From NCBI GenBank assembly GCA_033812955.1, contig JAPXSS010000006.1, forward strand, positions 1,911-65,910: a stretch of 64,000 bases of DNA, in the 5' to 3' direction. The notes below the pieces were generated by a model that saw nothing but the letters and a program-made list of their open reading frames with translations, was not told where the DNA came from and made no database searches. Below, one piece after another: positions 7,643 through 39,317 of the stretch; within the stretch, counting starts at the first letter, position 1; every line of letters begins with the position of its first letter. The stretch is from Syntrophobacteraceae bacterium (GTDB taxonomy: Bacteria > Desulfobacterota > Syntrophobacteria > Syntrophobacterales > Syntrophobacteraceae). A program made the translations under genes and the position numbers.

Positions 7643-7657
7643 ACAGGGAACTCCATT

Positions 7658-8518
7658 ATGAAGGTCACTTACTACCCGGGTTGTTCTTTGGAAGGTACGG
7701 CTCGCGATTATGCCGACTCTATCCACGGTGTTTGCACTCATTTTGGCATCCAACTGGAGGAAATACCGGATTGGAACTGTTGTGGGTCCACCGCGGCTCA
7801 CTGCATCAATCACAAGGCCAGTATCGAGCTTGGAGCACGCAACCTGAAACTGGCGGCGCGCCGTTCCAATGCTGACATGCTGGTACCCTGCCCGCTCTGC
7901 TACAATCGCTTGAAAACGGCAGCTTGGGCACTCGAGGAAGAGAAGACCCACCAGTACGATATTCAGTTGGATGCTCCCACACCCAAGATCTGGGACCTGG
8001 CAAACTTCTTTGCCACCGACGTGATGCTGGCAAGACTGAGGGAGAACGTCAAGAAGCCCCTCGAGGGCCTCAAGGTGGTTTGCTACTACGGTTGCATGGC
8101 CAGTCGGCCGCCACATATCACCAAAGCCACGGACTACGAGAATCCCCAGAGTATGGACCGGATTGTCAAGGCTCTCGGCGGGAAAGCCCTTCCTTGGCCC
8201 TACAAGACCGACTGCTGCGGGGCGAGCCTCATGCTCTCCCGCCCCGATATGGGGCACAAGCTGGTGGGCAAACTTTATGACATGGCACAGCGGGTGGGTG
8301 CCCAGGCAATCGTGGTCTCATGCCAGATGTGCCAGTCAAACCTCGACATGTATCAGAAGCAGATTGAAGCGGAATGGGGCCGCAGTTTTGCTCCCCCCAT
8401 TCTGTATTTCACGGAATTGATTGGTCTCGCCTGTGGTCTGCCGGCTGTCGAATCGTGGCTCTCACGGCATATCACAGACCCTCGGCCGGTCCTTCGCGAG
8501 GCCAGGCTGGTTGCCTAA
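7658..8518 (+). CDS. hdrB: heterodisulfide reductase subunit B (two CCG domains)
   Basis: YYPGCSL...NCCGS and YYGC...DCCGAS, the duplicated CCG-domain pattern of HdrB. Confidence 0.9.
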   Translation: MKVTYYPGCSLEGTARDYADSIHGVCTHFGIQLEEIPDWNCCGSTAAHCINHKASIELGARNLKLAARRSNADMLVPCPLCYNRLKTAAWALEEEKTHQYDIQLDAPTPKIWDLANFFATDVMLARLRENVKKPLEGLKVVCYYGCMASRPPHITKATDYENPQSMDRIVKALGGKALPWPYKTDCCGASLMLSRPDMGHKLVGKLYDMAQRVGAQAIVVSCQMCQSNLDMYQKQIEAEWGRSFAPPILYFTELIGLACGLPAVESWLSRHITDPRPVLREARLVA

Positions 8519-12984: not shown

Positions 12985-13041
12985 CAGGTGATGTTTGGAT
13001 TGAGGCTGTTTGCCCTGAGCTGATAACCGAGAGGAATGTCA

Positions 13042-13482
13042 ATGGCTGAAACATTCGAACCCAAAATTGTAGCCTTCGTGTGTAACTGGTGCGCCTATGC
13101 CGGCGCCGATCTGGCTGGGGTGGGTCGCATGCAGTACCCCACCAACGTGCGTCTCATCCGTTTGATGTGCACGGGCAGAATCAATCATGCCTTCCTGCTG
13201 AACGCTTACCAGGCAGGAGTGGACGGAGTCATGGTATCCGGGTGACACATCGGGGACTGCAATTACCTGGGAGGTAATGAAAAGTGTCTGAAGGTGGTTG
13301 AGGATACCCATAAAGTCCTCCGGCTGTTGGGTGTGGACGAACGGTATCTTTTTCTGAAATGGGTTTCAGCTTCGGAAGGGCCGATTTTTGCCGAGACGAT
13401 TCGAAATTACACCGAACTGTTGAAGCAACTGGGTAGAAATCCGCTGGCCGAGGCGCATAGCAGTGTCGCGAGTGCGGCCTGA
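13042..13482 (+). CDS. mvhD: MvhD-like [2Fe-2S] electron-transfer protein, selenoprotein (1 in-frame UGA at 13243-13245)
   Basis: Track ORFs 13036..13245 and 13294..13482 share one frame, separated only by TGA. Joined: [26 protein letters not shown]...[21 protein letters not shown]... The UGA sits where MvhD has the Cys of GCHxGxCHY. RBS AGAGGA lies before ATG 13042. Confidence 0.85.
13244..13288 (+). promoter_or_regulatory. putative bacterial SECIS hairpin for mvhD copy 1
   Basis: Core stem ATTACC(13262-13267)/GGTAAT(13273-13278), loop TGGGA. Outer pairing GACAC(13244-13248)/GTGTC(13284-13288). Confidence 0.5.
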
Positions 13483-13536
13483 CCGGGCTGTACGCAGACG
13501 GCTGCCGACGATTCCTCATAAACCGAATATGCCCTG

Positions 13537-14676
13537 ATGGAAGAGGCTATGATGATCAGTCTGGAACAAATCAGTTATTGCATGGAGTGTGGGGTCTGCA
13601 CGGGAAGTTGCCCCATCAGCAGATCGTTGACCTCTTTTTCGCCACGCCAGATGATAAAACGCTCGTTGATGGACCATGACGAGACGGTGGTGCAGGGGCG
13701 GGAGCTCTGGGCCTGCCTGACCTGCGCGCGCTGCAGCACCCGCTGTCCGGCGCAGATCGACTTCCCGGAGTTTGCCAGGGCCCACCGCGAACTGGCGCGC
13801 AAGGGAGGGAACCTGCCCCAGTTGAGCCATCACGGAACACTTCAGGCGATCGCAGCACTGCAAACCGCTAACATCAAGCAGCAGCGGACCGATTGGGCGA
13901 CCGAGGCGGGGACCTTCAAGGACAAGGGGGATGTTTTCTGTTTTGTTGGCTGCGCCCCGTACTTCGAAGCCGTCCTGAAGCCGGGTGAGGGTTCCCTGGA
14001 AGTGCCCAAAGCGGTTCTAGGGATACTCAACCGCATGGGCATCGAACCGGCCATCAGCAACGATGAGCGCTGCTGCGGGCATGATGCTCTGTGGAGCGGA
14101 GACGAGGCCACGTTCAAGCAGCTGGCGGCCATGAACCTCGAAGTCATCCGCGGCTCCGGGGCGAAGACGGTGCTGTTCAGTTGTCCCGAAGGCTATACCA
14201 CCTTCAAAAACCAGATCCCCAAGTACTTTGGCGATCTGCCCTTTGAGGTCCTTCACGTGACCGAATTCTTCGCCCGTGAGTTGCCTGCCTCCGGCGTGAA
14301 ATTCTCCCCCTGTACCAACAACGGGAAAGGCGGGGTGACGTATCAAGACCCGTGCCGGCTGGGTCGCGTGGCCGGGATCTACGAGGCGCCGCGGGAGCTG
14401 ATTCGGCTTGTTCCCGACGCCAGGTTCGAAGAAATGCCGCGCAACCGCGAAAATGCTCTTTGCTGCGGTACCAGTGCCTGGATGGAATGCTCCAACTGTT
14501 CTAAATCCATCCAGATCGAGAGGCTGCAGGAAGCGCGTGACGCCGGAGCCCACACGCTCATTACGAGCTGTCCCAAATGCCGCATCCATCTGAGTTGCGG
14601 TCAGCAGAACACTGATTTGACCGACCTGGAAGTGGTCGATCTCTTCGCTTTTCTTCTACAGCACATTGAATCGTGA
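13537..14676 (+). CDS. HdrC/HdrB fusion-type Fe-S oxidoreductase (2x[4Fe-4S] plus two CCG domains; HdrD/GlpC-like)
   Basis: CMECGVCTGSCP and CLTCARCSTRCP, then FVGCAPYF...CCGHD and YQDPCRLGR...CCGTS. The start could instead be ATG 13549 or 13552. Confidence 0.75.
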   Translation: MEEAMMISLEQISYCMECGVCTGSCPISRSLTSFSPRQMIKRSLMDHDETVVQGRELWACLTCARCSTRCPAQIDFPEFARAHRELARKGGNLPQLSHHGTLQAIAALQTANIKQQRTDWATEAGTFKDKGDVFCFVGCAPYFEAVLKPGEGSLEVPKAVLGILNRMGIEPAISNDERCCGHDALWSGDEATFKQLAAMNLEVIRGSGAKTVLFSCPEGYTTFKNQIPKYFGDLPFEVLHVTEFFARELPASGVKFSPCTNNGKGGVTYQDPCRLGRVAGIYEAPRELIRLVPDARFEEMPRNRENALCCGTSAWMECSNCSKSIQIERLQEARDAGAHTLITSCPKCRIHLSCGQQNTDLTDLEVVDLFAFLLQHIES

Positions 14677-14687
14677 CCAATGGAGGT

Positions 14688-14753
14688 TTCTCAAGATTAC
14701 TTGATCATGAAGTGCACGAATATGTTATAGATAACATTTTGCAATCTTGAGAA
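14688..14753. promoter_or_regulatory. nested inverted repeats in the hdrA copy-1 upstream region (candidate operator or terminator)
   Basis: Perfect 11-bp arms TTCTCAAGATT (14688-14698) and AATCTTGAGAA (14743-14753) enclose an AT-rich perfect palindrome ATGTTAT-AG-ATAACAT (14722-14737). Confidence 0.3.
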
Positions 14754-14871
14754 TACGTTTACAGTGGGGTTACTGGGCGTTTTCGGTGGAAACGCCCCAC
14801 CGTCACCACTGTATGGTTACAAGAGCGAACTTCGATAAGGATGATTTGAAACCCAAAAGGAGACCCTATTC

Positions 14872-16404
14872 GTGAAGCGGGATGTGTTGGTGATTGGGGG
14901 TGGTATTGCAGGCATTCAGGCATCTTTGGACCTGGGTGAAATGGGGTTTCAGGTGCATCTCGTGGAACGGTTGCCAAGTATTGGCGGTAAGATGGCGCAG
15001 CTTGACAAGACGTTTCCCACCAATGATTGCGCCTTGTGAATTCTCGCGCCAAAGCTGATGGATGTCGGTCGACATCCCAACATCCGGTTGCTGGCCTACT
15101 CGGAAGTGGAAAAAGTGGAGGGGGAAATCGGGGATTTTCACGTCACGGTGCGCAAGAAGGCCCGTTATGTTGATGAAAATAAATGCACGGGGTGTGGGAC
15201 ATGCGCCGAGAAGTGTCCGACGGTAACTTCCGACGTCTACAACCTCGGGCTTGGCAAAGCCAAGGCCATCTATAAGTACTTTGCCCAAGGGATTCCATCC
15301 GCTTATACCATCGACGCCAATGCGTGCCGACAGCTCCAGGGGAAGAAGTGCGGTGTTTGCGCCAAGGTCTGTCAGGCCGGCGCCATCGATTACAAGATGC
15401 AGGAAAAGATCGTCGAACTCGACGTTGGCGCCATCATTGTGGCGACCGGCTACGATCTCTTCGATGCTCGCAGGATTCCTGAGTATGGCTATGGGAGGCT
15501 GCCCAACGTGGTCACGGCCCTGGAATTCGAGCGGTTCCTTTCGGCCAGCGGACCGACCCACGGGCACGTCTATCGCCGTTCGGACCTGGCCCTGATGGAT
15601 GCTCTGCCCGAGGCGGAAAAGAGCCAGCAGAAAGCGGCCAGGGGCCTTGAACAGTTGGAAAAGAAAGGCGGGATGAGTTCCGCCGATTTTTATACCAAGT
15701 ATGAGGCCGGTGAACTGCAAGGCGAAGAGTACGACAAGTGGGCCGAGCAGGTTAAGGTTTCCCGCGCCGCCACAGAAAAGCTCGATGCCATGAAGGCGAA
15801 AGTCGAGCAGATCGAGGGTGCGCATCGGCTGGCCTTCATCCAGTGCGTGGGCTCCCGCGACCTTCGCTTCAACCAGTACTGTTCCGGCTTCTGCTGCATG
15901 CACGCCATCAAGGAGGCGATCATTGGCCTGGAACATGATCGGGAAGCGGAAGTCTATATTTTCGGGATGGATATCCGTGCGGTCGGGAAGAATTTTGAAG
16001 AGTATCGAAATCGGGGAGCGAACGAAGCCGGCATCAAATTCGTTCGAAGCCGGGTGGCCGAGATCTACGAGGACAAGGATCACACTCCAATCCTCGTTTA
16101 CGAAGACACCAAGGAGCGCCGGGTGAAGCAGCTGCCGGTAGATCTGGTGATCCTGGCCACCGCCTGCCAGCCCAGCGAAGGGTTAGTGAAGCTAGCGGAG
16201 ATTTTGGGCATTAAGACCAACAACTTTGGCTTCATCGACACCGCCTCATATCTGCCTCTCGATACCTCACGGCCGGGCATCTTCGTTTGCGGTTGTGCCC
16301 AAAGCCCAATGGATATTCCCGAATCGGTTGCTCAGGCGAGCAGTGCCGCTGCCATGGCAGCCCAGGTGTTGTCAGGCCCTGAGACCGAATGTCTCGCCTC
16401 CTGA
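14872..16404 (+). CDS. hdrA: HdrA-like FAD/Fe-S flavoprotein, selenoprotein (UGA at 15037-15039), copy 1
   Basis: Own translation from GTG 14872 (RBS AAGGAGA 14857-14863): [68 protein letters not shown]..., in frame with track ORF 15058..16404. The UGA replaces the second Cys of the HdrA TNDCxxC motif (HdrL has Cys there). Confidence 0.85.
15060..15077 (+). promoter_or_regulatory. putative SECIS hairpin for hdrA copy 1
   Basis: GGATGTCG-GT-CGACATCC, perfect 8-bp arms starting 21 nt after the UGA. The apical pairs probably open to give a larger loop. Confidence 0.4.
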
Positions 16405-16418
16405 AGGAGAACATGTCA

Positions 16419-18140
16419 ATGACTGGTGATACCGAGAAGACCGCAGAGCTCAACGGCAAGGAAGTCAAGACGGGCGTTTTCGTCTGTCACTGTGGTTCCA
16501 ATATTGCGGGCCTCCTGGATTGCGAGGCGCTCGTCGACTATGCATCCAAGCTGCCCAACGTGGCTTATGCCAAGAACAATCTCTACACCTGTTCCGAAGC
16601 GGGCATTGCCGAGATCATGAATGCCATTAAGGACCATGGGCTCACCCGCGTCGTGGTGGCATCCTGTTCGCCCCGCACCCATATGCCGCTCTTCAAGAGT
16701 GCCTGCGCCGAGGCCGGTTTGAACCCCTACCTCTTTGAAATGGCCAACATTCGGGACCAGTGTTCGTGGGTGCACATGCACGAAAAGAGTGAGGCCAACC
16801 TCAAGGCTCGTGATCTGATCCGGATGGCGGTGGCCAAAGCCGAATATCTTCAGCCGCAGCAGGACATTGAAGCCTCGCTGGTGCGCAAAGCGCTCGTTAT
16901 CGGTGGGGGAATTGCCGGTCTGTCGGCTACCGTAGCACTGGCCAATATGGGAACGGAAGTGATCCTGGTGGAGAAGGCGGCCGAGCTTGGCGGGCTGTTG
17001 CGGCGTATCAACCGCGTCGGTCCCCGTGGCGACAAGGCTTCCGAGTTGCTCAGGAAACTGGTTGAGCAGGTCCAGGCAAAGCCGCAGGTGACCACGTTGT
17101 TGGAGAGCGAGCTGGCTGCGGTCGGCGGCGTGGTGGGCAATTATGAGGTCACGTTGCGCGGGAGAGATGGCGCGGAGCGGAAGGAGACCGTCGGGTGCAT
17201 CGTGGTGGCCACGGGGGCGGTGCCGTTCATCCCGGAAGGAATGTATGGGTATAACGGGAAGAACGTGATCACCCAGATTGACCTGGAAGAGAAGCTCCGG
17301 GATGGGACCCTCGAGGCCAAGCGGATCGTCATGATTCAGTGTGTGGGCGCCAGGTCGCCCGAGCGCACCTATTGTGGAAGGATTTGTTGCCAGACTGCCA
17401 TTAAAAACGCTCTCTACATCAAGGAGCTCAATCCCGAGGCGTATGTTCACATCCTCTATCGCGACATTCAGATGTATGGCACTGACAACGAACGGATGCT
17501 TTGGGATTCGCGCGGCAAGGGCGTTCGCTACGACATCTATACCGAGGAACGGCCGCCGATGGTGAAGGACGGGGTGGTGGAGGTTTATCAACCCCTGTTG
17601 GGTGAGGTGGAAGAGATTCCGTTTGATCTCCTGGTACTTTCGACCCCGCTGCTGGCACCGTCAGATTCGGCGGCGGTCGCCAACTTGATGCGCATCCCTG
17701 TCGATCAGAACGGCTTCTATCTCGAAGCCCATGCGAAGCTTCGTCCTCTGGACTTTGCCAGCGACGGAATCTTCCTCTGCGGCACGGCGCGCTATCCGGC
17801 AACGGTCAGGGAAGCCCAGGCCCAGGGGTTGGGTGCCGCCTCGCGCACCAGTACGGTACTCTCGAAGGAGAAACTTGTTTTCAGCGCGCTCGTCTCTTAT
17901 GTTACCGAAAAGTGTGACGGCTGTGCTTTGTGTATCGATTTGTGTCCGTATTACGCAATCTCCACTGAAGAGTATGAGGATGAAGGGGGCCGGAAGCACA
18001 AGCGAGTTAAGTCGGACAACATCCTTTGCAAGGGATGCGGGGTGTGTGCGGCCACCTGTCCCAAAGGAGGCATCATTGTGCACGGATTCACCGGGGAGCA
18101 GATTCGGGCCCAGGTGGATGCCGCTCTCGAAGCGGTCTAG
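16419..18140 (+). CDS. second HdrA-like subunit (N-terminal Cys-cluster domain, FAD domain, C-terminal 2x[4Fe-4S] ferredoxin domain), lacks the TFPTNDC motif, copy 1
   Basis: [74 protein letters not shown] 16404-16410 favours ATG 16419 over 16389 or 16413. Collinear with the C-terminal half of HdrL. Confidence 0.8.
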   Translation: MTGDTEKTAELNGKEVKTGVFVCHCGSNIAGLLDCEALVDYASKLPNVAYAKNNLYTCSEAGIAEIMNAIKDHGLTRVVVASCSPRTHMPLFKSACAEAGLNPYLFEMANIRDQCSWVHMHEKSEANLKARDLIRMAVAKAEYLQPQQDIEASLVRKALVIGGGIAGLSATVALANMGTEVILVEKAAELGGLLRRINRVGPRGDKASELLRKLVEQVQAKPQVTTLLESELAAVGGVVGNYEVTLRGRDGAERKETVGCIVVATGAVPFIPEGMYGYNGKNVITQIDLEEKLRDGTLEAKRIVMIQCVGARSPERTYCGRICCQTAIKNALYIKELNPEAYVHILYRDIQMYGTDNERMLWDSRGKGVRYDIYTEERPPMVKDGVVEVYQPLLGEVEEIPFDLLVLSTPLLAPSDSAAVANLMRIPVDQNGFYLEAHAKLRPLDFASDGIFLCGTARYPATVREAQAQGLGAASRTSTVLSKEKLVFSALVSYVTEKCDGCALCIDLCPYYAISTEEYEDEGGRKHKRVKSDNILCKGCGVCAATCPKGGIIVHGFTGEQIRAQVDAALEAV

Positions 18141-18199
18141 AGTCGTTGGCGGAGTCTGTTCAGTAGCTCGTTGATTTTCTGAGAAAGGAGTTTCCCTCG

Positions 18200-18631
18200 A
18201 TGTCTGATGATTTCAAACCGGTCATCTTAGGGTTCTTGTGTACGTGGTGAGCATACGCTGCTGCTGACCTGGCTGGGGTCAGTCGTATGCAGTATCCGTC
18301 GAACCTGCGGATAGTGCGGGTCATGTGTTCGGGGATGGTCAGTCCTGACATTGTGGTGCGTGCCTTGGACAAAGGCGCAGATGGCGTTCTGGTGGTTGGG
18401 TGACACCTCGGCGAATGTCATTACCTGGAAGGTAATCAAAAGGCAAACGCTCGGCAAGAAGCGACCAAGATTGTCCTCGAAAACCTTGGAATCGATACCG
18501 ACCGGTTTCTAACCGCTTGGGTATCGTCGGCGGAAGCTCCCAAGTTTGCGGAGGTGGTTACAGCTTATGTGAACCATATCAAAGAGTTGGGGCCAAATCC
18601 TCGGAAGCAGCAAAAAGCGGAAGCCGCCTGA
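18200..18631 (+). CDS. mvhD: MvhD-like protein, selenoprotein with two in-frame UGA codons (18248-18250 and 18401-18403)
   Basis: Own translation from ATG 18200 (RBS AAAGGAG): MSDDFKPVILGFLCTW-U-AYAAADLAGVSRMQYPSNLRIVRVMCSGMVSPDIVVRALDKGADGVLVVG-U-HLGECHYLEGNQK...PNPRKQQKAEAA*. No plus-strand ORF is listed in the track for this gene, because the two UGAs cut it into sub-60-aa pieces. Confidence 0.85.
18251..18290 (+). promoter_or_regulatory. putative SECIS hairpin (first UGA of mvhD copy 2)
   Basis: GCATACG(18251-18257)/CGTATGC(18284-18290) outer stem. CTGACC(18264-18269)/GGTCAG(18277-18282) inner stem, loop TGGCTGG. Confidence 0.5.
18420..18436 (+). promoter_or_regulatory. putative SECIS hairpin (second UGA of mvhD copy 2)
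   Basis: ATTACC/GGTAAT stem, loop TGGAA. Same element as downstream of the equivalent UGA in mvhD copy 1. Confidence 0.5.
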
Positions 18632-18676
18632 TCATGAGGATATCTCGCGGAGGCACCGAAACTTAAGAGGTGTTAC

Positions 18677-19603
18677 ATGGCAGCTAGGGTAGCGGAAGAG
18701 TGGTTGAACGCCTGTGCGGGTTGTGAGATCTCGGTGGTAGATCTGGGTGAGCGTTTGCTGAAGGTATTGGAGCTCGTCGAGTTCGTTCACATCCCGGTGC
18801 TGATGGATCACAAATATTACGGTCAGTTGGGGGAGGGAAAGCATATTCACATCCCCGAAGCGGATGTGGGAATCATCAGTGGCAGCATCCGCAATACTGA
18901 GCATCTCGAAGTGGCCGAGGAGATGCGCAAGCAGTGCAAGATCATTGTGGCCTTGGGCACCTGTGCGACTCACGGGGGGATCCCGGCCTTGGCCAATTCC
19001 TACCAAAACCAGGAGATGTATGATCGGTATTACTCAACCGAGACTACCGATATACCTAACTCTTTTCCAACCGATGGGCTCCCGCCGTTGCTGGACGCCT
19101 GCTACGCGTTGGATGAAAAGATCAAGGTGGACGTCTACCTGCCCGGTTGTGCTCCCCATCCGGACCAAGTTTTTGTCGGGCTGGCGGCTCTTCTCGGGCT
19201 CATGCCGCTGGCACTGCCTGACAAGAGTGTCTGCGATACCTGTCCCACAGTCAGAGAGGGGAAGGGACAGGTTAAGCAACTACAGCGATTCCTGCATTCG
19301 CCCCATTATGGAGCGCCCGACGAACCGTTGGATAAGATGCGCTGCCTATTGGAGCAGGGGTTTCTCTGCATGGGACCAGTGACCAAAGCCGGCTGCGGTG
19401 GTGACGGGGTTGTTCCGCGCTGCATCATTGCCCGGGTGCCGTGCCGGGGCTGCTATGGGCCAGTGGAGCACGACGGCAACCAGCTCCTGGACATGCTCAA
19501 TGCGCTGGCGTCCAATGGCATCGATATCAAGTCTCTGCCCGAGTATGCTTCTCTGTTGCGTTTTTCCGGGGCCCACCATCTGCTGACGCCGCGGAAGAAA
19601 TAG
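18677..19603 (+). CDS. mvhG: [NiFe(Se)] hydrogenase small subunit, group 3c (MvhG-like)
   Basis: NACAGCEISVVD, ALGTCATHGGIPA, multiple C-terminal Cys clusters (CDTCP, CMGPVTKAGCGG, CRGC). No Tat signal, consistent with a cytoplasmic enzyme. Confidence 0.85.
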   Translation: MAARVAEEWLNACAGCEISVVDLGERLLKVLELVEFVHIPVLMDHKYYGQLGEGKHIHIPEADVGIISGSIRNTEHLEVAEEMRKQCKIIVALGTCATHGGIPALANSYQNQEMYDRYYSTETTDIPNSFPTDGLPPLLDACYALDEKIKVDVYLPGCAPHPDQVFVGLAALLGLMPLALPDKSVCDTCPTVREGKGQVKQLQRFLHSPHYGAPDEPLDKMRCLLEQGFLCMGPVTKAGCGGDGVVPRCIIARVPCRGCYGPVEHDGNQLLDMLNALASNGIDIKSLPEYASLLRFSGAHHLLTPRKK

Positions 19604-19618
19604 AGGGAGGATGAGAAT

Positions 19619-21064
19619 ATGGCGCGAGTAATCAACATTGCTCCCATAACCCGCATCGAGGGGCACGGCTCGGTCGAGATCCAGCTTGATGACGGGGGGA
19701 GTGTAAGCAGTACCAAAGTGCACTACATGTCGCTACGGGGCTTTGAGAAGTTCATCGAGGGCAAGCCTGCAGAAGAAGTGCCCCGGATTGTGACCCGCAT
19801 TTGCGGTATTTGCCCGTGGCATCACCACATGGCTTCGAACAAGGCTGTGGATCGCTGTTTTGGCGTGACCCTGCCACCGACTGGGTGGAAGCTGCGGGAA
19901 TTTGCCCAGACCATGGCCCATGCTGAAGACAAGCTGCTGCACTTCTACTTTCTAGCGGCGGCGGACTTTGTGATGGGACCGGACGCCCCCTATGAGGTGC
20001 GAAATGTTATCGGGGTTGCCAAAGCCAATCCCGAGCTGGCCACCAAAGCGGTCCAGATGCGCTACATGGCGAAAATGATTCTTGAAAAACTGGGCGGCAA
20101 GGCCATTCATCCCCATGCCGCGGTAGCAGGCGGTTTCTGCCGGCCCCTGCTCAATTCTGAACGGCTGGAATTCCTGGAGAAACTCAAGGTGCTGCTGGAA
20201 TTCTCGCACGATACCCTCAAGTTTGCCAAAGCGAACGTGTTTCCCAAATACCTCGATGTGGTCAAGACCCTTGGGGTCATCAACACCGGTTTCCTTGGCA
20301 CTGTGGATGAGAAGGGCAACCTTGCCCTCTTCGACGGCAAGCTGCGCCTGATGAAAGCCGACGGCTCCTTCGTGGATTTCAGTCCCCAAGACTACATCGA
20401 TTATCTGGGCGAAGCAGTGGTACCCTTCTCGTATGGCAAGTTTCCGTATGCCCGCTCTTGGAATGAGGGCTTTTCTCTCGATATCGACAATCCCAAGGGC
20501 ATCTACCGGTGCAATTGTCTTGCCCGGATCAATGCCTGCGACGCAATCTCGACGCCGCGGGCCCAGGCGGAGCTGGAAGAGTTTCGCAAGGCTTTCGGGC
20601 GCCCGGCGCAGTTAACCCTGCTCTATCACTGGGCGCGGCTGATCGAGGATGTGTATGCCTACGAGCATGCCATCGAGCTGCTGGAAGACCCGGCAATTTG
20701 CGACACGGACATTCGGGCAAAGGTGGAACCCAAGGCAGGAAGAGGGGTGGGCTGTGTGGAAGCTCCCCGCGGGACCCTGATTCACGACTACACCACGGAT
20801 GACAACGGTTTGATCAAGCACGCCAACCTCATCGTGGGGACGACGCACAATCTGGGCCCCATTAATATGAGCGTCAATCAGGCCTCCAAGATGTTGATCA
20901 AGAACGGTGAGGTGAACGAGGGCATCCTCAACATGATTGAGATGTCGATACGCGCCTACGACCCCTGAATTAGCTGCGCCACTCATTGCCTGGATGGCAA
21001 TAATGGGTTCTCGATCAAAGTCATCGACGCCAAGGGTGAAATCATCACCAGGCGGCCTGCGTAG
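19619..21064 (+). CDS. mvhA: [NiFeSe] hydrogenase large subunit, group 3c (MvhA/Vhu-like), selenoprotein (UGA at 20966-20968)
   Basis: RIEGHG and RICGICPWHH N-terminal Ni-site motif. Track ORF stops at TGA 20966, but reading on gives AYDP-U-ISCATHCLDGNNGFSIKVIDAKGEIITRRPA* (TAG 21062-21064). That is the DPCxxCxxH C-terminal Ni-site motif with Sec in the first position. Confidence 0.85.
20985..21001 (+). promoter_or_regulatory. putative SECIS hairpin for mvhA
   Basis: ATTGCC/GGCAAT stem with loop TGGAT, 17 nt after the UGA. Confidence 0.45.
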
Positions 21065-21129
21065 CATTGAAGGGGCAATGCCCCTGAGGCAGGGGGGGTT
21101 AGGAGTTAACCGGACCTGAGTAAAGAAGC

Positions 21130-21164
21130 GGGGGTAGTTCTCAGCGAGCTACCCCCCTGGTTTT
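21130..21164 (+). terminator. rho-independent terminator-like hairpin after mvhA
   Basis: GGGGGTAG(21130-21137)/CTACCCCC(21149-21156), 11-nt loop, followed by CTGGTTTT. Confidence 0.5.
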
Positions 21165-21188
21165 CCGGGAAAGAGCTTTAGCGGGGGT

Positions 21189-21821
21189 TCAGCTTATCAC
21201 CCACACCGCGATGTCCTGCGCCACCTGCGTGAGCTTGGCGGCAATTCGCCCGATCTGGAATTCTTCAACCTCGGATACGCCGCGCCGACCCACGACAATG
21301 GTCCCGTAGCGGCCGTTGCGGGCTTCATTGAGAAGGGCCGTTGACCGGCTGACCACTCCCGAGATCACCTTGGTGTTGATTTTGGCTGGATCGGCTCCCA
21401 TGGCGGTCAAGGATTTGGAGAGTTTTTCGAACATCGGCTAGATCGCGTCCTGAGCATCATCCTGGAGCTTCTGGAGGATGTAAGTCTCGTCTTCCTGTGG
21501 AAATCTAACCACATGAGCCGGCGTTACCTGCGGTTCACCCTTGCCCAACATCCTGCCGACGAAATTCGCGGCCCGCATGGATCCCCAGGAATTGTCCACA
21601 CTCGCAAGGATTTTGCCTCCCTTCGATTTTCCGCCTACCAGATAAACCGTCGGGCCAACCACATTCAACCGTACCTTGCTAGCAATGCTGTCATGAATGG
21701 TATCATCCGCGGCCCCGATGCCCCTACGTCCCATGGCCACAAGGTCGCAGCCGAACCGGCACTCTTCGAGGATGTCTCTGGCAAAGCCGTTCTTGCGCTT
21801 TTGAATGAGGATTATCAGTTT
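21189..21821 (-). pseudogene. remnant of a tandem universal stress protein (UspA family) gene: 5' truncated, with an in-frame TAG
   Basis: Track ORFs 21438..21740 and 21189..21434 share one frame, split by TAG (21440-21438). Together they give one Usp domain (...GRYGTIVVGRRGVSEVEEFQIGRIAAKL...). The frame upstream reads ...ARDILEECRFGCDLVAMGRRGIG (C-terminus of another Usp domain) but hits a stop at 21824-21822 with no start codon. Confidence 0.5.
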
Positions 21822-21890
21822 CTAATATATGCTTCAACAGACATACAGCGTGATTAGCCGTGATTGTCCTCAAAATCAGGCAAAGAATTG

Positions 21891-21919
21891 TTGATATCCA
21901 CAAAAAAATGAAGTATATT
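21891..21919 (+). promoter_or_regulatory. candidate sigma70-type promoter facing hdrA copy 2
   Basis: TTGATA(21891-21896)-N17-TATATT(21914-21919) in the less GC-rich spacer. It would give a ~430-nt leader. Confidence 0.3.
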
Positions 21920-22359
21920 GCTATCGATTGTGAATGTTCACCCTCAAATTCTCCGCAGAAGCTCGGTGGAAAAAGCTGACAATTATGGGCGCCTCCTCGG
22001 AAAAGCTGCTTTTCGTATGTCTTCGCACAGGGCGGAGAAATATGATGGGCTGGGAGAGGGTGGAAGTTTCTCAACCACCGCGAGTCAAAATTGGCACCCT
22101 CCGATCCCACGCATCCAGCCTGGGGACGACTCCGATAACGCGCCAAAATGGTCTGTATAATGAGGCATGGATTGGAATGAGGTCGTCGTCAACCTCATTC
22201 GCCAGGCTACGCTTTGTCTCCACCCGGCGTTGTCGAGGTTGGGCTCGAGGAGGACGGATGCTTGTGGCTCCAGAAGGCAGGGAGACCTTGTCTCCGATGT
22301 TCTTTTGAAATAGGTCGAACAACGACGGATGGTTTGAAACCCAGAAGGAGACCCTACTC

Positions 22360-23889
22360 GTGAATCGCGACGTGTTAGTGATTGGGGGAGGAATTGCGGG
22401 CATGCAAGCCTCTCTGGACCTGGGTGAAATGGGATTCCAGGTGCATCTGGTGGAGCGATTGCCAAGCATTGGCGGCAAGATGTCGCAGCTTGACAAAACG
22501 TTTCCCACCAATGATTGCGCCCTTTGAATCCTGGCGCCGAAGCTGATGGATGTCGGTCGACATCCCAAGATCCGGTTGCTGGCCTACTCAGAGATTGAAA
22601 AAATTGACGGTGAAATAGGGAATTTTCACATCACGGTTCGCAAAAAAGCCCGTTATGTCGATGAAAAGAAATGCACGGGTTGCGGGACGTGTGCGGAAAA
22701 GTGTCCGACGGTAACTTCCGACGTCTACAACCTCGGGCTTGGCAAAGCCAAGGCCATCTATAAGTACTTTGCCCAAGGGATTCCGTCCGCCTATACCATC
22801 GACGCCAATGCGTGCCGACAACTCCAGGGGAAGAAGTGCGGTGTTTGCGCCAAGGTCTGTCAGGCCGGCGCCATCGACTACAAGCAGCAGGAGCAGATCA
22901 TCGAGTTCGAGGTGGGGGCCATCATTGTGGCCACCGGTTATGATCTCTTCGATGCTACGAAAATCCCGGAATATGGTTACGGGCGACTGCCCAACGTGGT
23001 CACCGCCCTGGAATTCGAACGGTTCCTCTCCGCCAGCGGCCCCACGCATGGTCACGTCTATCGCCGTTCGGACCTGGCCCTGATGGATGCTCTGCCCGAG
23101 GCGGAAAAGAGCCAGCAGAAAGCGGCCAGGGGCCTTGAACAGTTGGAGAAGAAAGGCGGGATGAGTTCCGCCGATTTCTATGCCAAGTATGAGGCTGGTG
23201 AACTGCAAGGCGAAGAGTACGATAAGTGGGCCGAGCAGGTTAAGGTTTCCCGCGCCGCCATGGAAAAGCTCGAGACCATGAAGGCGAAAGTCAACCAGAT
23301 CGAGGGCGCGCATCGGCTGGCCTTCATCCAGTGCGTGGGGTCCCGCGACATTCGCTTCAATAAGTACTGTTCAGGCTTTTGCTGCATGCATGCCGTCAAA
23401 GAGGCCATCATTGGCCTGGAACACGACAGGGACGCCGAAGTCTACATATTCGGCATGGATATCCGCGCGGTCGGAAAGAACTTCGAGGAGTACCGCAATC
23501 GTGGTGCCGGTTCCGGGATCCAGTTCATCAGGAGCCGGGTGGCCGAAATTTACGAGGACAAAGATCACACTCCCATCCTCGTTTATGAGGACACCAAAGA
23601 GCGGCTGGTGAAGCAAATGCCGGTGGACCTGGTGATTCTGGCCACCGCTTGCCAGCCCAGTGAAGGGATAGTCAAAATGGCGGCCACGGTGGGTATCGAA
23701 ACCAACGATTTCGGCTTCATCAAGACCGCCTCTTACCCGCCGCTCAGCACCTCGCGGCCGGGAGTCTTCGTCTGCGGCTGTGCGGTAAGTCCCATGGATA
23801 TTCCTGAATCGGTTGCTCAGGCCAGCAGTGCCGCGGCCAGAGCAGCTCAGGTTCTGTCAGGTTCTGAGACCGAACGTCTCGCCTCCTGA
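22360..23889 (+). CDS. hdrA: HdrA-like FAD/Fe-S flavoprotein, selenoprotein (UGA at 22525-22527), copy 2
   Basis: Own translation from GTG 22360 (RBS AAGGAGA): [68 protein letters not shown]..., in frame with track ORF 22546..23889. Same geometry as copy 1 (Sec at codon 56). Confidence 0.85.
22548..22565 (+). promoter_or_regulatory. putative SECIS hairpin for hdrA copy 2
   Basis: Identical GGATGTCGGTCGACATCC element at the same offset as in copy 1. Confidence 0.4.
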
Positions 23890-23903
23890 AGGAGAACAAG
23901 TCA

Positions 23904-25622
23904 ATGAGTGGTGATACGGAGAAGACAGCAGAGTTCAACACCAAGGATGCACGGATCGGCGTTTTTGTCTGTCATTGCGGTTCCAATATTGCGGGCCTCC
24001 TGGACTGCCCGGCCTTGACCGAATATGCATCCGGGCTGCCCAACGTGGTTTTTACCAAGAATAATCTCTACACCTGTTCCGAAGCGGGCATTGCCGAGAT
24101 CATGAACGCCATTAAGGACCATGGGCTCACCCGCGTCGTGGTGGCCTCCTGCTCGCCGCGCACCCATATGCCGCTCTTCAAGAGCGCGTGCGCCGAGGCG
24201 GGGCTCAATCAGTACCTGTTCGAAATGGCCAACATTCGGGATCAGTGCTCCTGGGTTCACGCGCAGGATCAAGAATTGGCCCAGATCAAAGCCATGGACT
24301 TGATCCGGATGGCGGTGGCCAAAGCCAGGTTCCTGGAACCGGCTGAGGACATCGAGTCCTCCCTGGTGCGCCGTGCCATGGTCATTGGTGGCGGGGTGGC
24401 CGGGCTGTCGGCGGCCGGCGCTCTGGCGGACATGGGGATGGAAGTGATCCTGGTGGAAAAGCAGGCAGAACTCGGCGGCCTGCTGCGTCGGATCAATCGC
24501 ATTGGCCCGGGCGGCGAAAAGGCTTCCGAGCTGCTGGGTATGCTGGTGGCGGACTTTAAGTCCAAGCCAAGGGCCAAGGCGCTGCTGGAGAGTGAAGTGT
24601 CGGCAGTGAGTGGGGTGGTTGGCAATTACGAGGTGACCATTCGCGACAAAAGTGGTGAGATGCAGACGGAAACGGTGGGCTGCATTGTCGTTGCCACCGG
24701 AGCGCTGCCGTTCACTCCCGAAGGACTGTACGGGTACAACGGAAAGAATGTGATCACCCAGATTGAACTGGAAGAGAAGCTTCGGGACGGCACCCTCGAC
24801 GCCAAACGGGTGGTCATGATCCAGTGCGTTGGTGCCAGATCGCCTGAGCGGACCTATTGTTCGCGGATCTGCTGCCAGACGGCTATCAAGAACGCTCTCT
24901 ACATCAAAGAGCTCAATCCCGAGGCTCATGTCCATATCCTCTATCGTGACATCCAGATGTACGGCACCGACAACGAACGGATGCTGTGGGACTCACGCGG
25001 CAAGGGCGTTCATTACGATGTTTACGATGTTGAGCGGCCGCCGGTGGTGAAGGACGGGGTGGTTGAGGTTTATCAGCCGCTGCTGGGTGAGGTGGGGCAG
25101 ATTCTTTTCGATCTGCTGGTGCTCTCGACTCCCCTGGTGGCCCCTGCAGATGCGCAGGACGTTGCCAACCTGATGCGCATTCCCGTGGACCAAAATCGTT
25201 TCTACCTGGAGGCCCATGCCAAACTGCGGCCGTTAGATTTTGCCACCGACGGGGTCTTCCTGTGCGGGACAGCACGCTATCCGGCAACCGTAGGGGAAGC
25301 CCAGGCCCAGGGGCTGGGGGCGGCGTCGCGGGCTGCGACCGTGCTGTTCAAAGACAAGCTGGTAGCCAGCGCCTTGATCTCTCAGGTGACGGAGCGTTGC
25401 GACGGCTGTGGTGCCTGTGTCGAGCTCTGCCCTTACCATGCGCTCAGTCTCGAGGAGTACGAACAAGACGGACGGAAACTCAAGCGCAACAAGGTCGACA
25501 AAATGTTATGCAAGGGGTGCGGAGTGTGCGCCGCCACCTGTCCCAAAGGGGGCGTGGTGGTCTGTGGATTCACTCGCACGCAGCTCCAGGCCCAAGTGGA
25601 TGCAGCGCTCGAAGCGGCTTAG
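23904..25622 (+). CDS. second HdrA-like subunit, copy 2
   Basis: Collinear paralogue of 16419..18140 (VFVCHCGSNIAG, VIGGGVAGLSA, MIQCVGARS, CDGCGACVELCP, CKGCGVCAATCP). RBS AAGGAGA lies 8 nt upstream. Confidence 0.8.
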   Translation: MSGDTEKTAEFNTKDARIGVFVCHCGSNIAGLLDCPALTEYASGLPNVVFTKNNLYTCSEAGIAEIMNAIKDHGLTRVVVASCSPRTHMPLFKSACAEAGLNQYLFEMANIRDQCSWVHAQDQELAQIKAMDLIRMAVAKARFLEPAEDIESSLVRRAMVIGGGVAGLSAAGALADMGMEVILVEKQAELGGLLRRINRIGPGGEKASELLGMLVADFKSKPRAKALLESEVSAVSGVVGNYEVTIRDKSGEMQTETVGCIVVATGALPFTPEGLYGYNGKNVITQIELEEKLRDGTLDAKRVVMIQCVGARSPERTYCSRICCQTAIKNALYIKELNPEAHVHILYRDIQMYGTDNERMLWDSRGKGVHYDVYDVERPPVVKDGVVEVYQPLLGEVGQILFDLLVLSTPLVAPADAQDVANLMRIPVDQNRFYLEAHAKLRPLDFATDGVFLCGTARYPATVGEAQAQGLGAASRAATVLFKDKLVASALISQVTERCDGCGACVELCPYHALSLEEYEQDGRKLKRNKVDKMLCKGCGVCAATCPKGGVVVCGFTRTQLQAQVDAALEAA

Positions 25623-25802
25623 AGTTTGGCAGGGTGTTGAAAAATCTTCCCCAACGTCTCCCCGGCGAAACCCGGAGTACAGAAAACCATGCGGAACCTG
25701 GATGTCGGTTTTCACCGGCATGACGGACAGAGCCTTCGATGCACTTTTTCAACAGCCTGCTAGAGGAGTACTCACAAACAGGTAAGAAAGGAGTTTTCCC
25801 CC

Positions 25803-26222
25803 ATGTCCGATGAGTATGTTCCCACCATTGTTGGATTCCTCTGCACGTGGTGAGCGTACGCCGCTGCTGACCTGGCTGGGGTCAGTCGTTCGCAGTACCC
25901 TCCCAATCTGCGTATCGTCCGGATGATGTGCTCCGGGATGGTCAGTCCCGACCTGGTGGTACGCGCCCTGTCCAAAGGTGCCGACGGCGTGCTGGTGCTG
26001 GGATGCCACCTGGGTGAGTGTCACTACATGGAAGGCAATTTCAACGCGGCCAAGCGGATGGCGGTAATCAAGAATCTGCTCGCCTTTACCGGGATCGACC
26101 CGGCGCGGCTCAGGGTGGAATGGGTATCGTCCGCCGAAGCGCCCAAACTGGTCGAGATTGTTATCGACTTCACCAACCAGATCAAAGATCTCGGACCCTC
26201 CCCGTTGAAGGCTGTGGCCTGA
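25803..26222 (+). CDS. mvhD: MvhD-like protein, selenoprotein (one UGA at 25851-25853; Cys at the second site)
   Basis: Own translation from ATG 25803: MSDEYVPTIVGFLCTW-U-AYAAADLAGVSRSQYPPNLRIVRMMCSG...GVLVLGCHLGECHYMEGN..., in frame with track ORF 25923..26222. Confidence 0.85.
25854..25893 (+). promoter_or_regulatory. putative SECIS hairpin for mvhD copy 3
   Basis: CTGACC(25867-25872)/GGTCAG(25880-25885), loop TGGCTGG. Outer GCGTACG/CGTTCGC with one mismatch. Homologous to the 18251-18290 element. Confidence 0.45.
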
Positions 26223-26256
26223 TGGAGACTGACATTGATCGGGCTGTCAAGGATCA

Positions 26257-27081
26257 ATGAGAAAGGCTCTTTTTATGGTTGAAAAGATCAAAGCAAGAGT
26301 TCAGGAACTGTTGGCGTCCGGCAAGATCAAAGGTTTCCTCGGTCTCCGCGAAAGGTACGGCCACGTCGGCCCTTACCTTTTTACCGATCCCAATGACCTC
26401 GACGGAATGTCCGTCGGCGATGGGGCAAAACCCGGCGATACCCGCTATTCGCTCAACAAACAACTCATCAGGCTGGTCCATTCTTATCAGGACGACGCTT
26501 TCGGCGTGTTGGTGCGCGGCTGCGATGAGCGCGGGCTGAAAACCCTGATTGCCTCCAACCAGCTCGACCCGGCACGGGTGGTTTCCGTCGGTTTGGCCTG
26601 CCCCCAGGAACTGGCCGATGCCTGCGAGTGTATGAAGCCCTTTCCCGATGAGTACGTTGCGGGTGAGCCATCCGAAGGGCGGCCTTTTGCCGGAGTGGCT
26701 CAGATCGAGGCCATGGCCATGGAGGAGCGTTTCAAGGTCTGGCTGGCCGAGTTCGCCAAATGCGTCAAGTGCTATGGCTGTCGCGATGTCTGTCCGATGT
26801 GCTACTGCAAGGAATGCACCCTGGGAGGCAAGGATTTTGTGAACGTCGGCACCCTGCCGCCGCAAAATCCCATCTTCCACATCACCCGCGCGCTCCACAT
26901 GGCAGGAAGATGCATCGACTGTGGGCTGTGTAATGAAACCTGCCCTGCGGATATCCCACTACGAACGCTCTACAAGAAGATCGCAGACCTTGTTGACCAG
27001 GAGTACCAGTATCGGCCGGGCTATGGCGAACCCAAGGCCAGCCTGACCATTCACGGCCTCGGTGATTCCCCACAACACTGA
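26257..27081 (+). CDS. 2x[4Fe-4S] Fe-S protein, putative electron-transfer partner of the formate dehydrogenase
   Basis: CVKCYGCRDVCPMC and CIDCGLCNETCP ferredoxin-type motifs in the C-terminal half. The N-terminal half was not recognised. The role is inferred only from its position between mvhD and fdhA. Confidence 0.5.
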   Translation: MRKALFMVEKIKARVQELLASGKIKGFLGLRERYGHVGPYLFTDPNDLDGMSVGDGAKPGDTRYSLNKQLIRLVHSYQDDAFGVLVRGCDERGLKTLIASNQLDPARVVSVGLACPQELADACECMKPFPDEYVAGEPSEGRPFAGVAQIEAMAMEERFKVWLAEFAKCVKCYGCRDVCPMCYCKECTLGGKDFVNVGTLPPQNPIFHITRALHMAGRCIDCGLCNETCPADIPLRTLYKKIADLVDQEYQYRPGYGEPKASLTIHGLGDSPQH

Positions 27082-27094
27082 GAGGAGCATTGGT

Positions 27095-29131
27095 ATGAAT
27101 TACCGGAATGTACTGACCACGTGCACCTACTGCGGCTGCGGGTGCACTCTCTATCTCGAGGTTTTGGGCGGCCACCTGGTGAACACGATTCCCTGCAAGA
27201 CCAGCAATCTCAACGAAGGCAAGCTTTGTGTCAAAGGCTGGAACGTCCACGAATTCGTTGAGAGCTCGAATCGCCTGACTCAGCCGTTGCTGCGTAAAGA
27301 TGGCAAGCTGGCCCCGGTTTCCTGGGATGAGGCGCTGGATTTTATTGCCAAACGGCTGAAGGAAATCAAAGAGGCCAACGGCCCTGATAGCATTGCCTTT
27401 CTGGCCTCGGCCAAGGTGACCAACGAGGAAAACTACCTCATCCAGAAGTTCGCGCGAGCGGCAGTGGGAACCAACAATGTCGACCACTGCGCCCGTCTCT
27501 GACACTCCTCGACGGTGGCAGGACTTGCTGCCTCGTTTGGGAGTGGGGCGATGACCAACTCTATCGCCGAAATCGAAAACGCCGATTGCATCATCGTGAT
27601 TGGTTCCAATACCCCATCGAATCACCCGCTGGTCGCAACCCGTATTTACCGCGCCCAGGCAAAGGGGGCGAAACTGGTGGTGGTAGACCCCCGCAAGGTT
27701 CCCTTGGCAAAGAACGCCACCCTGTATGTGCAGCACAAGCTTGGTACTGATGTGGCGCTGATCAACGGGATCATGAACGTCATCCTCACTAACGGCTGGC
27801 ACAACGAGGCCTTCATCAAGGAGCGGACCGAGGGCTTCGAGGAACTCCGCAAGGTGGTCGAACAGTATCCACCGGAGCGTGCGGCGGAGATCACCGGGGT
27901 TTCGGCCGATGACATTCGCACCATCGCCGAATGGTACGCTAAGGCCAAGGCCAGCTCCATTGTCTATTGCATGGGCATCACCCAGCACACGACCGGGGTG
28001 GACAACGTCAAATCCCTGGCCAACCTGGCCATGCTGACCGGCAACATCGGCCGGGAATCGACGGGCGTCAACCCGCTGCGCGGCCAGAACAACGTGCAGG
28101 GGGCCTGCGATATGGGTGGGCTGCCCAACGTCTATCCCGCCTACCAGCCGGTGAACAACCCGGATATTCAGAAGAAGTTCGAAGCCGCCTGGCATGCCAA
28201 ACTCTCCGATAAGATCGGGCTCACTATTCCAGGGGTCCTCGAAGGCTTGTCCGCGGGTATGGTGAAGGCGGTCTACATCGTCGGCGAGAATCCCATGGTG
28301 AGCGACCCTGACGTAAACCACGTGGAAAAGGCCCTGCGCGAAGCGGAGCTGCTGGTGGTCCAGGACATCTTCCTCACCCCGACGGCCGAACTGGCGCATG
28401 TGGTGCTACCCGGCGCCTCCTTTGCCGAAAAGGACGGCACCTTCAGCAACACCGAACGGCGCGTTCAGCGGGTGCGCAAAGCGATTGAACCCATCGGAGA
28501 GTCGCGGGCGGACTGGGAGATCCTCCAGGATCTCTCCACCCGCTTCGGCTACCCCATGAAATACGAGTCCCCGGCCGAAATCATGGCAGAGGTAGCTACG
28601 GTCGCCCCATCCTACGGGGGCATCAGCTACGACCGGCTCGAGGGTGAAGGTCTCTTCTGGCCCTGCGTCAACAAGGACCATCCGGGTACGAGAGTCCTCC
28701 ACCAGGGCAAATTCTCGCGTGGCTTGGGGCTCTTTCATGCAATCGATTTCAAGCCGCCGGCGGAACAGATCGATACCGAATATCCCTTCTGGCTCACCAC
28801 CGGGCGGGTTCACGTGCATTACCATACCGGCACCATGACCCGCAACTCCCCTTCCCTTCATGCGGAAATGCCCGAGGGTTTCCTCGAAATCAACCCGCAG
28901 GATGCCAAAGCACTTGGGGTGAGAGCGGGGGATAGGGTGAAGGTGAGTTCCCGGCGTGGGGAAATGGTGACGCGGGTGGACTGCACCAAGCGGGTAACTC
29001 CCGGAATGGTCTTCATGCCGTTCCATTTTGTAGAAACGTGCGCCAACATCCTGACCAACCCGGCCAATGATCCCATTGCCAAGATTCCCGAGTACAAGGT
29101 GTGCGCGGTGAAGCTGGAAAAGGCGGCATGA
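27095..29131 (+). CDS. fdhA: formate dehydrogenase catalytic subunit (molybdo/tungstopterin), selenoprotein (UGA at 27500-27502)
   Basis: MNYRNVLTTCTYCGCGC (N-terminal 4Fe-4S). Track ORFs 27062..27502 and 27515..29131 share one frame; joined they read NVDHCARL-U-HSSTVAGL, the canonical FdhA/FdhF Sec active-site motif. RBS GAGAGGAG lies before ATG 27095. Confidence 0.9.
27504..27544 (+). promoter_or_regulatory. putative SECIS hairpin for fdhA
   Basis: ACTCC(27504-27508)/GGAGT(27540-27544) outer stem. GGCAG(27517-27521)/CTGCC(27528-27532) apical stem, 6-nt loop GACTTG. Begins directly after the UGA, as in fdhF-type SECIS. Confidence 0.55.
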
Positions 29132-38478: not shown

Positions 38479-38480
38479 CG

Positions 38481-39302: not shown

Positions 39303-39317
39303 GGATCGAGGGAAGAC

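Follow-up and report, generated by a model that had tools for sequence, protein, structure and literature searches.

Described selenoprotein operons and the locus under study

The genome of the syntroph Syntrophobacter fumaroxidans encodes 31 selenoproteins, including 7 HdrA, 8 FrhD (= MvhD), 3 FrhA, and 6 FdhA (Zhang et al. 2006, Genome Biol 7:R94, PMC1794560), and contains three operons of five genes each that are alike in make-up (glpC-hdrA-frhD-frhG-frhA) and in which hdrA is split into neighbouring genes (PMC1794560). The same authors proposed a transfer between archaea and Deltaproteobacteria (PMC1794560), and in a 2026 review frhA-frhD-hdrA figures among the textbook operons of selenoproteins (PMC13188914). 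The locus described here lies in a 64,000-nucleotide stretch of DNA (hereafter, the window) from a Syntrophobacteraceae bacterium (assembly GCA_033812955.1, contig JAPXSS010000006.1, positions 1,911 to 65,910 of the forward strand) and consists of three adjacent clusters of Hdr-type, MvhD, hydrogenase, and formate dehydrogenase genes, seven of which are interrupted by a total of eight in-frame UGA codons. These codons very probably specify selenocysteine (Sec) and would be decoded by the bacterial mechanism, and their products would form three adjacent redox modules.

The second of the three clusters (cluster II) is organized like the S. fumaroxidans operons, in the order glpC, two hdrA genes, frhD (mvhD), frhG (mvhG), and frhA (mvhA), with Sec in HdrA, MvhD, and MvhA; the presence of several copies per genome and the host, a deltaproteobacterial syntroph, are further shared traits. 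In contrast to those operons, in which GlpC is a selenoprotein, glpC is devoid of UGA here, and the second copy of the hdrA/hdrA'/mvhD scaffold has fdhA in the place of a hydrogenase; the organism, too, is a different one. Cluster I associates HdrL and MvhD without a hydrogenase catalytic subunit and in this composition resembles a cluster of S. fumaroxidans, HdrABC/HdrL-MvhD (Sfum_0819-0824, PMC5947623), in which a separate hdrA and an Fe-S protein are additionally encoded. The current understanding is unchanged, as this type of operon has been on record with its selenoproteins since 2006; the only differences from the published cases are the Cys-only GlpC, the Sec/Cys mix of the three MvhDs, and the organism. 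That selenium is placed in nearly every electron-input step of the Hdr-linked hydrogenase and formate dehydrogenase modules of Syntrophobacter-type syntrophs is confirmed by this locus.

The other described counterpart is the Methanococcus/methanogen set, represented in the comparison by Methanococcus maripaludis (9sfi and 9t1s, PMC13518236), Methanothermococcus thermolithotrophicus (5odc), and Methanospirillum hungatei (7bkb). As in the Methanococcus Vhu/Fdh-VhuD-HdrABC system, the Sec positions are those of the HdrA CxxU motif, of the two VhuD sites, of the nickel ligand in the DPUxxCxxH motif of VhuU/MvhA, and of the FdhA active site. In the methanogen complexes, hydrogenase and formate dehydrogenase are alternative modules that dock via VhuD, and in M. 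maripaludis Vhu and Fdh compete for VhuD/HdrABC. Conversely, the archaeal selenocysteine insertion sequence (SECIS) elements reside in untranslated regions, whereas in this locus one hairpin per UGA is found inside the coding sequence (CDS), which is the bacterial mode; moreover, HdrA is split here into two polypeptides and contains about 80 inserted residues, MvhA unites VhuA and VhuU in one polypeptide, and the archaeal equivalog cut-offs of NCBIfam are not reached. A preliminary description of this DNA had remarked that the classical Methanococcus selenoproteins occur side by side in a bacterial locus: the families and the positions are indeed the same, but the observation is not new (PMC1794560, PMC13188914).

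In-frame UGA codons and cysteine/selenocysteine columns

On the + strand, in-frame TGA codons begin at positions 13243, 15037, 18248, 18401, 20966, 22525, 25851, and 27500. Each of them has an open frame upstream, family-typical protein on both sides, and a normal stop downstream, and all eight interrupting stops are TGA (TAA 0, TAG 0). The program-made list of open reading frames (ORFs) divides or shortens each of the seven genes where these codons occur, in agreement with the preliminary description, which had listed the same eight positions; standard gene callers would likewise split or truncate the seven genes, and the annotation of the contig needs a Sec-aware correction. Pfam and NCBIfam assign the read-through translations to the FlpD/MvhD, HdrA-like, NiFeSe hydrogenase large subunit, and Fdh-alpha families, and the frame continues with family-typical sequence after every UGA, as had also been proposed. 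The translations contain the motifs TNDCALU (both HdrA proteins; in hdrA-1 it is the CxxC/U motif beside the FAD), CTWU (MvhD site 1), GUH(I/L)G(D/E)C(N/H)Y (MvhD site 2), DPUISCATH (MvhA), and CARLUHS (FdhA), in which all the motifs quoted in that description (TNDCxxU, CxWU, GUHxGxCHY, DPUxxCxxH, CARLUH) are recognized.

For an unbiased alignment, X was placed at the UGA positions and the translations were searched against the sequences of solved structures, with the result that a Cys/Sec column lies under the UGA at eight of the eight sites. Specifically, MvhD sites 1 and 2 (both X in mvhD-2) align to Cys in 7bkb_F, 9sw2_D, and 5odc_D, while the HdrA UGA aligns to a Cys of 5odc_A and to the X (Sec) of 9sfi_A (TNDCALU against TNDCSIC and TDDCAMX, respectively). 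The MvhA UGA aligns to the first Cys of DPCLSCATH in 9sw2_F, MvhA being alignable also to 5odc_F and 9sfi_g, and the FdhA UGA aligns to the Sec of 1aa6 (E. coli FdhH, Sec140) and of 9t1s_L and to the Cys of 7qv7_S and 7bkb_D. Since Cys accounts for only about 3-4% of residues, the coincidence of all eight TGAs with Cys/Sec columns is not due to chance. In the M. maripaludis HdrA, the corresponding Sec197 belongs to a Cys-Sec pair that adjoins the FAD and whose role has been discussed (PMC13518236).

No ninth selenoprotein site emerged in the cluster from a scan for further in-frame UGAs and for stop columns in the relatives. Four other candidates with in-frame TGA (5688+, 23373-, 41523-, and 56742-) were rejected because each is either antisense to a real gene or situated at the edge of one. 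glpC has no in-frame UGA, and its read-through beyond the TGA at 14674, which is a true stop, was discarded in view of the non-coding sequence downstream. A DsbC-like protein (42206-42967) was also rejected as a selenoprotein on account of its ordinary CPYC motif.

Codons at the same columns in related loci

The same columns were followed in 80 related loci, retrieved from the GTDB representative genomes with the neighbouring gene hdrA-1b as the query; codons were mapped by tblastn, and the counts include the window's own copies. The closest loci belong to Syntrophobacteraceae and "delta proteobacterium" metagenome-assembled genomes (MAGs), and the best GTDB relative of hdrA-1b has 74% protein identity; the window accordingly derives from an uncultured bacterium related to Syntrophobacter. 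The codons at MvhD site 1 are TGA (61), TGC (54), and TGT (31), with no other, and those at site 2 are TGA (105), TGC (28), and TGT (13), while the FdhA column is TGA in 27/27 cases and the MvhA column in 4/4. At the HdrA column, TGA occurs 98 times and TGY (TGC or TGT) 36 times, the other matches there being distant HdrA-like paralogues. The conserved Cys positions to which the preliminary description had assigned the UGAs are borne out both by the structure alignments, in which Cys homologues stand opposite the UGAs, and by the MvhD, FdhA, and MvhA columns of the relatives, which hold TGA, TGC, or TGT only.

A scan of 15 cluster genes for columns of in-frame stops in the relatives detected recurrent TGA only at the known Sec columns; specifically, glpC, mvhG, and the hdrB/C-like genes have no TGA column among the relatives in the 80 loci and are Cys-only. 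At the HdrA Sec column, HdrL of the window has a TGC codon (8737) and hence Cys, and the aligned relatives have TGA in 95 of 158 cases. The four closest loci (L001, L004, L005, and L009, all from Syntrophobacteraceae MAGs) are syntenic with the window and have the same Sec/Cys pattern, i.e., Cys in HdrL, C/U in MvhD-1, U in HdrA, U/U in MvhD-2, and U in MvhA (U for Sec, C for Cys, site 1 before site 2 in MvhD); L009 additionally has the hdrA(U)-mvhD(U/C)-fdhA(U) arrangement. Among the relatives, each of the four possible MvhD combinations is common, with C/U in 69 cases, U/U in 33, U/C in 25, and C/C in 15.

Homologous hdrA/mvhD clusters were also retrieved from seven loci of Bathyarchaeia and Asgard MAGs, whose retrieved copies have Cys codons (TGY) at all these columns. 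The use of the archaeal loci as a test of archaeal SECIS placement was rejected for this reason.

Hairpins downstream of the UGA codons

Downstream of each UGA there is a hairpin of 5-8 bp, which begins 12-20 nt after the codon and closes no more than 41 nt from the first base of the UGA (Table 1). The apical loops are G-rich (GGUC, UGGNN, GGCUG, and GACUUG), and the loop type and the 12-20 nt spacing fit the bacterial SECIS (bSECIS) model reportedly put forward by Zhang and Gladyshev 2005; the GGUC apical loop of the hdrA hairpins resembles the loop of the fdhF SECIS. The element of fdhA (dG -28.5, z -3.5) matches the Rfam family SECIS_3 (RF01989) over all 59 model positions in a permissive search (27497-27555; 55.9 bits, E 7.6e-11), and both this full-length match and the alignment of the UGA to Sec140 (1aa6) liken fdhA to the E. 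coli fdhF gene.

The hairpins are retained in the relatives according to the codon that precedes them. With the stem held in a fixed register, that of MvhD site 2 is intact in 102/102 unique TGA sequences vs 1/40 unique TGY sequences, that of HdrA in 61/96 vs 0/35, and that of MvhD site 1 in 36/58 vs 2/84; for the mvhA hairpin, the comparison comprises only 3 homologues, all TGA. The TGA sequences without a stem of the window type belong to other paralogue classes that bear a different hairpin, and a compensatory swap from A-U to U-A is present in two sequences. Moreover, the downstream folding energy in the relatives is lower with TGA than with TGY (p 2e-3 to 1e-12). The amino acids encoded over the stems are similar in the TGA and TGY groups, and therefore the difference between the two groups of stems lies largely at synonymous positions (e.g., GGU AAU vs GGC AAC), which points to selection acting on the RNA. 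In the window, the Cys codons at 8737 (HdrL), 13090 (MvhD-1 site 1), and 26004 (MvhD-3 site 2) are without a hairpin, and at the last of these the hairpin is broken by three substitutions.

The thermodynamic stability of the hairpins was evaluated by comparing the 45 nt after each UGA with segments of equal length that follow 5710 further codons in these genes. A stem-loop after the UGA is a true feature but, by stability alone, weak evidence, because G+C-rich coding DNA (58% G+C) folds readily. The claim of the preliminary description that a stem-loop occurs within about 40 nt of each UGA is accordingly upheld as to presence, at all eight sites, and not as to distinctive stability, which is lacking at five of the eight.

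Decoding of the UGA codons

The columns under the UGAs, the codons of the relatives, the hairpins restricted to TGA, and the SECIS_3 match at fdhA agree with one another and with the selenocysteine interpretation given in the preliminary description, which we regard as very likely correct. In the mechanism that we propose, each UGA would have its own SECIS hairpin inside the CDS, the hairpin would bring SelB and Sec-tRNA(Sec) to the ribosome, and the UGA would be read as Sec; decoding would depend on SelB, and selenium would be incorporated at these positions.

Some observations weigh against the selenocysteine interpretation. The 64-kb window and the 10 kb that follow it contain no tRNA-Sec and no selA, selB, or selD gene, and the Sec-decoding machinery is assumed to be available to this locus. 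The stem comparison draws on related sequences, and its counts are not independent events. In the stability test, outliers are found at only three of the eight sites, with empirical p values of 0.007 (18248), 0.027 (25851), and 0.0002 (27500) and a Fisher combined p of 2e-4. Lastly, the SECIS_3 score of 55.9 falls 7 bits short of the gathering threshold of 63, Rfam gives no match at gathering thresholds, and the permissive search gives none at the other seven sites.

The alternative that survives best, and still an improbable one, is a selenium-free read-through of UGA, in which Cys or Trp would be inserted by near-cognate suppression or under a reassigned code to yield ordinary Cys enzymes; that the Sec machinery was seen neither in the window nor in the following 10 kb is in line with this explanation. 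However, TGA is the commonest stop codon in the window and the true stop of 21/35 confident genes, and for this reason the genetic code is one without global reassignment of UGA, while the in-frame UGAs stand only at Cys/Sec columns. Furthermore, a conserved hairpin is needless for generic read-through, one of the hairpins matches an Rfam SECIS family, and published relatives, e.g., S. fumaroxidans, carry a Sec-containing SelD (PMC1794560).

Even less probable is a pseudogene origin, with the UGAs as nonsense mutations in redundant Hdr/Mvh/Fdh paralogues that are truncated and decaying. Such pseudogenes might be expected in a cluster that is rich in paralogues and that harbours, in its middle, a degraded universal stress protein (USP) gene with an in-frame TAG, but all eight stops are TGA on Cys/Sec columns, frameshifts are absent, and the coding quality is high downstream; the recurrence of the same TGA columns in dozens of relatives, together with TGA-specific hairpins, effectively refutes this explanation. 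Errors made in the sequencing or assembly of a metagenomic contig have a negligible probability, although the matches of the window are to metagenome contigs and not to the genome of an isolate, and are refuted by the eight independent TGA errors that they would need exactly on Cys/Sec columns, repeating the pattern of independently assembled relatives.

Organization of the three redox modules

If the UGAs are read as Sec, each of the three clusters would constitute a redox module (Table 1). Cluster I would combine hdrC-like, hdrB-like, and hdrL genes with mvhD-1 (C/U); in cluster II, a cytoplasmic [NiFeSe] hydrogenase would be wired via MvhD to an HdrA-type flavoprotein; and in cluster III, the same scaffold would carry a Sec formate dehydrogenase as the module for input or output. 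The Vhu/Fdh-VhuD-HdrABC complexes of methanogens suggest, by analogy, that these modules link H2 or formate to a site of flavin-based electron bifurcation or confurcation, which homology makes their likely function; the protein partnerships and the physiological direction of the electron flow are likewise inferred. As to the bacterial HdrB/GlpC-like partners, DsrC has been proposed as their substrate.

Table 1. Genes of the three clusters and hairpins that follow the UGA codons (positions in the window; U, Sec; C, Cys; MvhD sites given as site 1/site 2)
Feature	Position	Strand	Description
Cluster I
hdrC-like	7049..7642	+	Pfam 4Fe-4S dicluster; starts cluster I; no UGA
hdrB-like	7643..8518	+	NCBIfam HdrB/SdhE-like CCG protein, below equivalog cut-offs; no UGA
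hdrL-type fusion	8557..12984	+	1475 aa; Pfam: HdrA-like, NAD(P)-binding GltD-like, HdrA-like
mvhD-1	13036..13482	+	148 codons; Pfam FlpD PF02662, 151 bits; C/U; Cys19 (TGC 13090) at site 1, Sec70 (UGA 13243-13245) at site 2
Cluster II
glpC/hdrD-like	13537..14676	+	Fe-S oxidoreductase; Pfam/NCBIfam: 4Fe-4S dicluster and two CCG domains
hdrA-1	14872..16404	+	510 codons; TrxR-like FAD domain of HdrA; Sec56 (UGA 15037-15039)
hdrA-1b	16389..18140	+	583 aa; Pfam/NCBIfam: HdrA N-terminal and C-terminal ferredoxin domains; no Sec
mvhD-2	18200..18631	+	143 codons; Pfam FlpD, 172.7 bits; U/U; Sec17 (UGA 18248-18250), Sec68 (UGA 18401-18403)
mvhG	18677..19603	+	[NiFe] hydrogenase small subunit; Pfam Oxidored_q6; NCBIfam VhuG-like
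mvhA	19619..21064	+	481 codons; [NiFeSe] hydrogenase large subunit; PF00374 NiFeSe_Hases, 120 bits (cut-off 25.8); Sec450 (UGA 20966-20968)
Cluster III
hdrA-2	22360..23889	+	509 codons; 90.8% protein identity to hdrA-1; Sec56 (UGA 22525-22527)
hdrA-2b	23904..25622	+	572 aa; paralogue of hdrA-1b, 79.5% identity; no Sec
mvhD-3	25803..26222	+	139 codons; NCBIfam VhuD model, 131.5 bits; U/C; Sec17 (UGA 25851-25853), Cys68 (TGC 26004)
Fe-S protein	26257..27081	+	274 aa; weak 4Fe-4S dicluster Pfam matches, all below gathering; NCBIfam none
fdhA	27095..29131	+	678 codons; formate dehydrogenase catalytic subunit; TIGR01591, 886 bits (cut-off 666); Sec136 (UGA 27500-27502)
Hairpins
mvhD-1 site 2	13262..13278	+	AUUACC-UGGGA-GGUAAU, 16 nt after UGA
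hdrA-1	15060..15077	+	GGAUGUC-GGUC-GACAUCC, 20 nt after UGA
mvhD-2 site 1	18263..18283	+	GCUGACCU-GGCUG-GGGUCAGU, 12 nt after UGA; lower stem extends to 18251-18290
mvhD-2 site 2	18420..18436	+	AUUACC-UGGAA-GGUAAU, 16 nt after UGA
mvhA	20985..21001	+	AUUGCC-UGGAU-GGCAAU, 16 nt after UGA; near-identical to the MvhD site 2 hairpin
hdrA-2	22548..22565	+	Same sequence as the hdrA-1 hairpin
mvhD-3 site 1	25866..25886	+	Same sequence as the mvhD-2 site 1 hairpin
fdhA SECIS element	27497..27555	+	Apical GGCAG-GACUUG-CUGCC at 27517-27532 atop a long lower stem

The hdrA-1 product covers only residues 145-571 of 5odc_A, with the insertion mentioned above, while the missing domains are on hdrA-1b; its score against NCBIfam NF041778 is 425 bits, with a cut-off of 1400, and by these profile data it is HdrA-like and no HdrA equivalog. 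The mvhD-1 and mvhD-2 products exceed the PF02662 cut-off of 22.3 over profile positions 1-123/123, and all three MvhDs miss the cut-off (215) of the NCBIfam archaeal VhuD model, with 118-139 bits. MvhA has the nickel-binding motifs of the large subunit, RICGIC at the N-terminus and DPUISCATH at the C-terminus, and its residues 431-461 match the NCBIfam VhuU selenopeptide model; the whole protein is below the VhuA equivalog cut-off (447 vs 800). FdhA, in turn, scores above the equivalog cut-off of TIGR01591. The 274-aa Fe-S protein encoded between mvhD-3 and fdhA is probably the electron-transfer subunit between FdhA and MvhD-3, as suggested by its gene position.

Clusters II and III contain paralogous hdrA/hdrA'/mvhD scaffolds, one followed by mvhG-mvhA and the other by the Fe-S protein gene and fdhA. 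The segments 14839-18150 and 22327-25630 are 81.5% identical in nucleotide sequence over 3317 nt, with 255 nt more aligning at 77%. The change from Sec68 in mvhD-2 to Cys68 in mvhD-3 coincides with the loss of the hairpin, and the locus represents a natural experiment, with two scaffolds side by side, one for a hydrogenase and one for a formate dehydrogenase, and a Sec-to-Cys change accompanied by hairpin decay.

The three MvhDs differ in their Sec/Cys combinations (C/U, U/U, and U/C), and it is a speculative and rather doubtful idea that these combinations tune the redox potential or the electron-transfer rate to the respective partner, i.e., HdrL, the [NiFeSe] hydrogenase, and the formate dehydrogenase. 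A [2Fe-2S] cluster takes four ligands, and the conserved Cys/Sec positions of MvhD number only five; if all the ligands are Cys or Sec, at least one Sec position would therefore be a cluster ligand. Were the tuning idea true, the locus would offer a natural series for studying iron-sulfur clusters with selenium ligands in electron bifurcation.

In the 1.3 kb that separate mvhA from hdrA-2, the minus strand contains a remnant of a USP gene (21189-21860), with a TAG at 21438-21440 inside one USP domain and with the upstream domain shortened by stops near 21834. This remnant is probably a pseudogene left where the two paralogous modules join.

Other features of the window

Outside the three clusters, the minus strand carries at 30015-32816 an ORF of 933 aa whose product has a signal peptide, a middle part rich in Trp and Tyr, and a long tail rich in Arg, Gly, Pro, and Gln, in a region with a local G+C of 0.68-0.70; the ORF has a low codon-usage score and no family match in NCBIfam. 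Two tandem, slightly overlapping paralogues of the TRZ/ATZ family of amidohydrolases (similar to methylthioadenosine (MTA)/S-adenosylhomocysteine (SAH) deaminases) occupy 39303-42009; their matches to the "selenium metabolism protein SsnA" are sub-threshold and were judged to reflect family resemblance only. Immediately before them, at 38097-39302, the ORF of a purine nucleoside phosphorylase is preceded in frame by about 83 residues that resemble an internal piece of glycogen phosphorylase, which may be a gene remnant. Lastly, the 10 kb beyond the end of the window encode a KefB-like transporter and a giant protein similar to phosphoenolpyruvate (PEP) synthase.

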